This document shows positions 38,386 to 38,473 of a stretch of DNA of 64,000 nucleotides, piece by piece. The notes under the pieces are model-generated. The model worked only from the letters and a program-made list of their open reading frames with translations. It made no database searches and had not been told where the DNA came from. Origin of the DNA: a virus. The position numbers and the translations under genes are program-made. The DNA lies in IMG/VR virus record IMGVR_UViG_3300037140_000174, positions 29,070 to 93,069 of that record. One strand, written 5' to 3'. The stretch's first letter is position 1. Every line of letters starts with the position of its first letter.

Positions 38386-38473
38386 AGGGCCGGTTCAACC
38401 CAGGAGGAGGCCTTGGTCAAACCGGCCCTGAGCACACGGGCCGTTGTCGGGGGGACGGGGGAGCCCGTGCGCT
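38386..38473 (-). ncRNA. Cuckoo-like two-hairpin RNA with anti-Shine-Dalgarno loops
   Basis: 11 bp and 15 bp stems with minus-strand G.U pairs; loops UCCCCCGUCCCCCC and CCUCCUCCUG. Confidence 0.65.

Follow-up and report, generated by a model that had tools for sequence, protein, structure and literature searches.

Two hairpins in an uncultured phage raise the question of whether a single RNA loop can address a whole set of early genes, as the loop of one of them displays the exact complement of the core of a leader that twelve genes share. They lie on the minus strand of the stretch analysed here (the window, 64,000 nt), which covers bases 29070-93069 of an IMG/VR record of 93,069 bp that is rated complete; in all genome comparisons the phage of the window is named G000. 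An earlier, sequence-only reading had placed two stable hairpins directly past the stop codon of a DUF4262 gene, and this description holds at 38386-38473 (-). The minus-strand fold of region 38350-38490 reaches -61.1 kcal/mol (z = -5.8) and was equalled by none of 200 shuffles, while the plus-strand fold of the same region has a z of -3.15. Hairpin 1 (38431-38473, -) begins 3 nt past the DUF4262 stop and has a 12-bp stem with one G.U pair; its loop of 19-21 nt is C-rich, in line with the C-rich tracts noted in that reading, and a target scan found no distinctive complement of this loop in the genome. Hairpin 2 (38386-38429, -) has a 15-bp stem (arms 38415-38429 and 38386-38400) of 13 Watson-Crick and two G.U pairs with zero mismatches. 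Its 14-nt loop (38401-38414, -) forms an inner 3-bp helix, AGG/CCU, around a CCUCCU hexaloop. At 38401-38409 (-) this loop carries CUCCUCCUG, the exact 9-nt complement of the leader core CAGGAGGAG; the leader strand has no second copy of this 9-mer anywhere in the 93,069-bp genome. Both the stem and the complement previously reported were thus recovered. Downstream, at 38365-38385 (-), follow a pyrimidine-rich tail, UUCCCUUUAU, and the GGAG Shine-Dalgarno sequence of the next gene.

The gene upstream of the hairpins (38477-38950, -) encodes a DUF4262 protein of 157 aa (Pfam PF14081, E-value = 1e-19), and the one downstream (38041-38364, -) a 107 aa protein of no family, with an ordinary GGAG Shine-Dalgarno sequence and not the shared leader. 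A cis role restricted to the gene starting at 38364 was set aside, because this gene and its counterparts in related phages are without the shared leader. The DUF4262 gene is absent from genomes G001-G005, so the hairpin is not bound to it. A search of viral contigs based on DUF4262 returned no relative. Five homologous DUF4262 proteins were found, including one relative with 90% identity, and in nine metagenome loci with DUF4262 (37-76% identity) the downstream sequence is unrelated or the locus ends first. Across the phages described below, the hairpin is accompanied by three unrelated types of upstream gene and by varied downstream genes, all of them on the leader strand; with flanking genes so variable, the hairpin is an independent unit and not the terminator of one given gene. 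Further along the minus strand lies a stretch of 549 nt without an ORF (36540-37088), between small genes and the replication block, with a predicted fold of -204 kcal/mol and no match in Rfam. Two adjacent small paralogues (37089-37430 and 37423-37746, -) share ~75% DNA identity over 95 nt, and, according to Pfam, a DnaB-like helicase (32864-35332, -) is split by an intein that includes a LAGLIDADG endonuclease domain.

Concerning the leader, the 13-mer AACAGGAGGAGAA occurs in 12 exact copies at 43875-51883, all on the minus strand and each 2-5 nt ahead of a start codon, where shuffled sequences give 0.11 copies. This count bears out the earlier claim of 12 genes with an identical leader at 43.9-51.9 kb. 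In transcriptional order the copies lie at 51871-51883, 51161-51173, 50494-50506, 49558-49570, 49025-49037, 48570-48582, 47781-47793, 47475-47487, 46353-46365, 46268-46280, 45112-45124 and 43875-43887, the last being followed by what is probably a TTG start. They belong to a run of minus-strand genes that spans ~54 kb down to ~13 kb of the window. Among the early genes with this leader are those of a DUF2201 metallopeptidase/VWA-like protein and of an Imm5-like immunity-type protein (43944-45110 and 45137-45862, -).

Each leader of the array is preceded by a composite cassette (window 43848-52309, -), which was also seen in G001, G002, G003 and G009-G012. Its order is a long hairpin with internal loops, a mini-hairpin of 5-6 bp and then the leader. 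The long hairpin often begins at the upstream stop codon and has outer arms of the AAGUGYU/RCACUU kind; the inner stems vary, the frame is kept and the design is common to the relatives. These hairpins show a likeness to the RNase III-type processing sites between the early genes of phage T7. Additionally, a CU tract resembling UCUCCUCCUCCU lies in the 5' untranslated region before a large GC-rich hairpin (51988-52003, -), with equivalents at about 23715 in G001 and about 14518 in G004. The fold predicted for this region has the tract paired with the leader that opens the array, which would make it a second anti-leader, acting in cis and conserved in three phages. A word of the form AAAAAACTA(ACC)CTAGGGCAC was also noted in two minus-strand intergenic regions, at 51283 and 12539, and may be a phage promoter or regulatory site.

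The DNA polymerase of the phage is at most 33% identical to that of cultured phages and the region gave no blastn match among GenBank phages, so there is no close cultured phage for comparison. Contigs of four DNA runs were used to compare strains in metagenomes. Peat metagenomes contain near-identical DNA, which is identical wherever the region is covered, and a lake-water run contains strains that are 5-10% divergent from the phage of the window. The sequence is absent from every sequencing run on record as RNA. Relatives were located in viral contigs by a leader search and then by a search for the cassette pattern. One of these, G003, is a complete genome of 93,560 bp, syntenic with that of the window and with proteins 45-70% identical. 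G001, G002, G009, G010, G011 and G012 are further relatives and G004 is a more distant one, while the records G005-G008 proved unrelated on inspection. As a measure of divergence within the group, the coding DNA of G002 and G003 is ~70% identical. All the relatives (G001-G004, G009-G012) bear arrays of cassettes, each ending in (A)ACAGGAGGAG and a start codon. The G001-type leader is CACAGGAGGAG, and the leader is constant among the phages that carry the hairpin. What never varies from cassette to cassette or from phage to phage is CAGGAGGAG, and these 9 nt are exactly those to which the loop in the window is complementary.

Every relative whose contig spans the region downstream of the array was covered in the search for inverted leader copies. 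In each of the five phages concerned (G002, G003, G009, G010 and G011), whose arrays have 9-18 leaders, the leader core is present in inverted orientation once, and only once, per genome. Specifically, CTCCTCCTG occurs exactly once on the leader strand in each of G000, G002 and G003, and G009, G010 and G011 have exactly one inverted core each versus 11-16 leaders. Following the direction of transcription, the inverted copy comes after the array, at a distance of 2.2-4.9 kb in the five relatives and of 5.4 kb in the window. In the five it forms the apical loop of a perfect hairpin of 10-11 bp on the leader strand; with the phage of the window included, all six have it in the apical loop of a perfect hairpin of 10-15 bp. 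When G002 and G003 were checked, the plus-strand reading of the inverted copy was not followed by a start codon, and in these two phages it is therefore not the leader of a gene on the opposite strand. All 13 nt of the anti-leader, UUCUCCUCCUGUU, are present in the loops of the five relatives, where (A)GG(G)A also pairs with UCC(U) to form an inner helix that encloses a hexaloop; the loop in the window has this design too. Between G002 and G003 the hairpin stands as an isolated island of 58 nt with 20 of 21 loop bases identical, amid spacers that cannot be aligned. The distant relative G004 has kept ~7 looser leaders and has no such hairpin.

A pyrimidine-rich hairpin or tract also lies upstream of the anti-leader hairpin in G002, G009, G010 and G011. 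The loci of G002, G009 and G010 (L050, L243 and L242) have in common the word UUUGUUUUGCUC, located after a terminator-like hairpin and just upstream of the two-hairpin element. Moreover, ~100 nt of spacer are ~95% identical by eye between G009 and G010, more alike than the flanking proteins (66-83%), so the conserved RNA may reach 150 nt or longer.

A covariance model (R1) was built from G009 and G010. It finds G002, G003 and G011 with 35-45 bits (E-values from 6e-11 to 6e-8) and one match per genome. In an alignment of the five relatives, which comprises five sequences only and is fitted to the model, both partners have changed in 6 of the 10 pairs of the 10-bp helix, and paired cells make up 100%; none of 500 shuffles reached the observed score, and slid controls were 37-59% paired (max 58.5%). 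Counted by hand, the stems differ by 2-6 both-sided changes between lineages, with no mismatch in any of the six. The G.U pairs had been said to work on the minus strand only and this is the case, as the five of G000, G009 and G010 become A.C mismatches on the plus strand. Within about 320 kb of unrelated viral loci, one of 105 CTCCTCC sites lay in a stem of at least 10 bp, and none of about 230 loci chosen for similar words paired a comparable hairpin with a leader array. Broader word scans gave chance sites only, an exact scan for the loop word of the window itself gave no match, and a scan for the predicted covarying loop of the G001 type (...CUGUG) gave no hairpin with a leader array. At the level of sequence comparison, these data demonstrate that selection maintains both the structure and the loop in this phage clade, and that it does so on the leader strand. 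Chance does not explain the match of loop and leader, first proposed from one genome, in the related phages: in all five relatives the single inverted core lies in the loop of a covarying hairpin. The element is a candidate RNA family absent from Rfam, with comparative support from six genomes.

The reading that we favour, giving it somewhat better than an even chance, is that hairpin 2 is the version carried by this phage of a conserved non-coding RNA element that displays the complement of the leader and shuts down the early cohort. As part of the same explanation, and on the same measured footing, its carriers would be uncultured phages of one clade, about 93 kb in size. Transcription of the RNA would take place at the distal end of the leftward early region; the RNA could come from read-through, from a dedicated promoter or from a long transcript that is processed. 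Pairing of its loop with the CAGGAGGAG core of each leader would cover the Shine-Dalgarno sequence; binding of the 30S subunit would be blocked and the whole early cohort shut down together, the distal location providing a delayed feedback. The five relatives keep the same arrangement, and for this reason the element is probably an RNA switch on the whole early gene set. Expression of the hairpin RNA, its timing and its repressive effect are what we infer from these patterns. A broader form of the idea is put forward more tentatively, at a little short of an even chance: a leader regulon, in which early cassettes share a leader and one distal anti-leader hairpin serves as an off-switch timed by distance, perhaps acting on host mRNAs with AGGAGG as well. 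The further suggestion, that the leaders were standardised for the sake of the RNA, does not follow from these data: only 9 of the 13 bases that are constant in the leader pair with the loop of the window, and the leader must therefore be subject to other constraints as well. Some points weigh against the favoured reading: a CU-rich loop will always be complementary, to a certain extent, to a strong Shine-Dalgarno sequence, G004 retains leaders and lacks the hairpin, and the copy of the window has a 9-nt match only, goes unrecognised by R1 and has a modest net binding.

Regarding this last point, the 9-bp duplex between loop and leader in the window is predicted at -15.7 kcal/mol before opening costs and the 13-bp duplex of the relatives at -21.2 kcal/mol, with about -11 kcal/mol for a 16S-type tail on the leader. 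Opening the loop would cost 4.9-6.1 kcal/mol (about 4.9 for freeing the 9 nt in the window, where the inner loop helix masks part of the anti-leader), and the median opening cost is 2.5 kcal/mol for the leaders versus 4.4 for other start regions. After both opening costs, the net predicted binding in the phage of the window is roughly -8 kcal/mol. When 145 start regions are ranked by duplex energy, 10 of the top 12 belong to leader genes, a result that is expected because the motif is shared and that adds little by itself. The 5' part of the loop that is specific to the window, AAGGCCUCC, complements GGAGGCC-type ribosome-binding sites of three genes without the shared leader, located at 13319-13609 (+) of the genome, outside the window, and at 37752-38048 (-) and 28650-29225 (-) of the window. 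The gene at genome position 13319 is the best of the 145 start regions (-23 kcal/mol), which may be chance.

The same pairing could take place within one molecule, the 3' part of a long early transcript pairing with its own leaders and tuning their translation or decay. The hairpin does follow the leaders on their own strand, no conserved promoter could be recognised, and the CU tract predicted to pair with the first leader would be a precedent for a cis anti-leader in the same genomes. Against this stands the fact that one loop is unable to occupy 12-18 leaders of its own molecule simultaneously; moreover, the terminator-like hairpins upstream of the element in G002, G009 and G010 would split it from most early transcripts. 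We consider a cis role unlikely on these grounds, although cis action, as the tail of the long transcript, and trans action, as a free small RNA, are not separable by computation.

Rather improbable, in our view, is that the hairpins are an intergenic terminator, attenuator or 3'-end stabiliser whose loop complementarity has no function. Such a device would fit an intergenic site in an array of co-directional genes, the GC-rich stems, the U-run that follows the stem in G002, G003 and G011, and the further terminator-like hairpin just upstream in G002, G009 and G010. In the window, a terminator scan flags only the inner sub-stem 38387-38401, and the tail offers at best a weak U-tract, with 5 U in 10 broken by CCC. 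However, 3 of the 6 copies (G000, G009 and G010) are without a U-run, the tails of G009 and G010 being C/U-rich like that of the window, and termination alone is thus no explanation and not the conserved function. The loop of a terminator is also free to drift, but here stems and flanks diverge and it is the loop that is conserved best; the loop is a perfect 13-nt complement of the most repeated word of the genome, present once per genome.

It could also be argued, for the phage of the window only, that the 9-nt match is a coincidence in an unrelated hairpin and that the element of the relatives has been lost. R1 gives the hairpin of the window 3.5 bits with filters off (E-value = 0.37), which is not a recognition, and MAFFT could not place it in register with the relatives. 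Its stem of 15 bp, its loop length and its flanking genes all differ from theirs, as do the loop bases on either side of the 9-nt core, so that the full 13-nt complement UUCUCCUCCUGUU is missing. By our own uniform-base estimate, a given 9-mer is expected about 0.36 times per 93-kb strand. Nevertheless, the copy has the layout of the R1 elements, being single, on the leader strand, downstream of the array and in the apical loop of a perfect stem, a placement found at ~1% of background sites. It shares with the relatives the 9-nt core, the purine/UCC(U) inner helix with its hexaloop and, with G009 and G010, the C/U-rich tail. In a lake-water variant that is ~7% divergent, the flanking loop base 38410 has changed and no change falls inside the 9-mer among the differences listed, which include insertions at 38446 (loop of hairpin 1) and 38463 (5' arm of hairpin 1, at its loop-side end). 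Judged from sequence, a chance placement of this anti-leader in a hairpin loop is unlikely, and the coincidence as a whole seems distinctly improbable to us. Escaping R1, the copy would be either a strongly diverged member of the family or an independent analogue, and maybe a weaker version. Finally, a functional plus strand, whose hairpin would show the leader as a decoy and titrate the binding partner of the leaders (30S subunits, a protein of the CsrA type, or a RegA/RegB-like repressor or nuclease of the phage), is very improbable: its loop does contain ACAGGAGGAG with GGA motifs, the stems of G002, G003 and G011 are fully Watson-Crick and hence fold on either strand, and in early mRNAs of T4 the GGAG lies within a longer conserved sequence that RegB recognises (PMC1702504), but the five G.U pairs are lost on that strand, the U-runs follow the hairpin on the leader strand only, the neighbouring genes are all on the leader strand and the minus-strand fold has the better z.

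The leader-directed element that we favour has several likenesses among known RNAs. The sequence-only reading had compared it to the cuckoo/CcsR RNAs, which are built of two hairpins with CCUCCUCCC in their loops, derive from an untranslated part of an mRNA and have many targets (PMC8034643). The likeness to this group (NfeR and the Rfam ar14 group of Alphaproteobacteria) lies in an extended anti-Shine-Dalgarno loop, CCUCCUCCC there and CCUCCUCCUG here. Membership was not upheld. Rfam gave no match over the whole window at the gathering score nor in the loci of G002 and G003, and at E-values up to 10 the region 38300-38560 gave no cuckoo-type match, only SdsR (E-value = 6.6) and a lncRNA fragment. 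Unlike in the cuckoo/CcsR RNAs, CCUCCUCCUG is present in the loop of hairpin 2 only, the C-rich loop of hairpin 1 being without the motif. The setting differs as well: instead of the DUF1127 neighbour of the CIN1 subgroup on an alphaproteobacterial replicon, a virus contig has DUF4262 upstream and a family-less gene downstream. Furthermore, their targets are diverse host mRNAs, whereas the presumed targets here are the genes of the phage itself, reached through a standardised leader.

In the C-rich small RNAs of the RsaE/RoxS type in Firmicutes, unpaired C/U-rich loop motifs pair with the G-rich Shine-Dalgarno sequences of several mRNAs. These RNAs are host-encoded, use short UCCC seeds and involve no standardised leader, and no sequence relation between them and the hairpin of the window was found. 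Within phages, the c4 RNA of P1 and P7 is cut from the transcription unit of its target, and its loops pair with the ribosome-binding region and block translation (PMC12197685). It has a single target, ant, and serves immunity in a temperate phage, while here one loop is proposed to address 12-18 identical leaders. A limited literature search found no account of a phage RNA that acts on a leader common to early genes of the same phage. To our knowledge, phage small RNAs are few and nearly all of them target one gene or host genes. If the proposed function is correct, a single conserved RNA would provide a compact and programmable timing of a whole expression class, and the processing-type hairpin, the insulating mini-hairpin, the identical leader and the anti-leader would form a part set for synthetic gene circuits. 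The aim would be that of RegB and RegA of phage T4, in which early mRNAs are shut off as a class through their ribosome-binding regions, RegB cutting within GGAG and requiring an extended conserved sequence (PMC1702504, PMC3014915). Both of these are proteins, whereas the agent proposed here is an RNA and the mark of the class an identical leader of 9-13 nt, so that the element, if confirmed, would be an RNA counterpart of T4 RegB/RegA.
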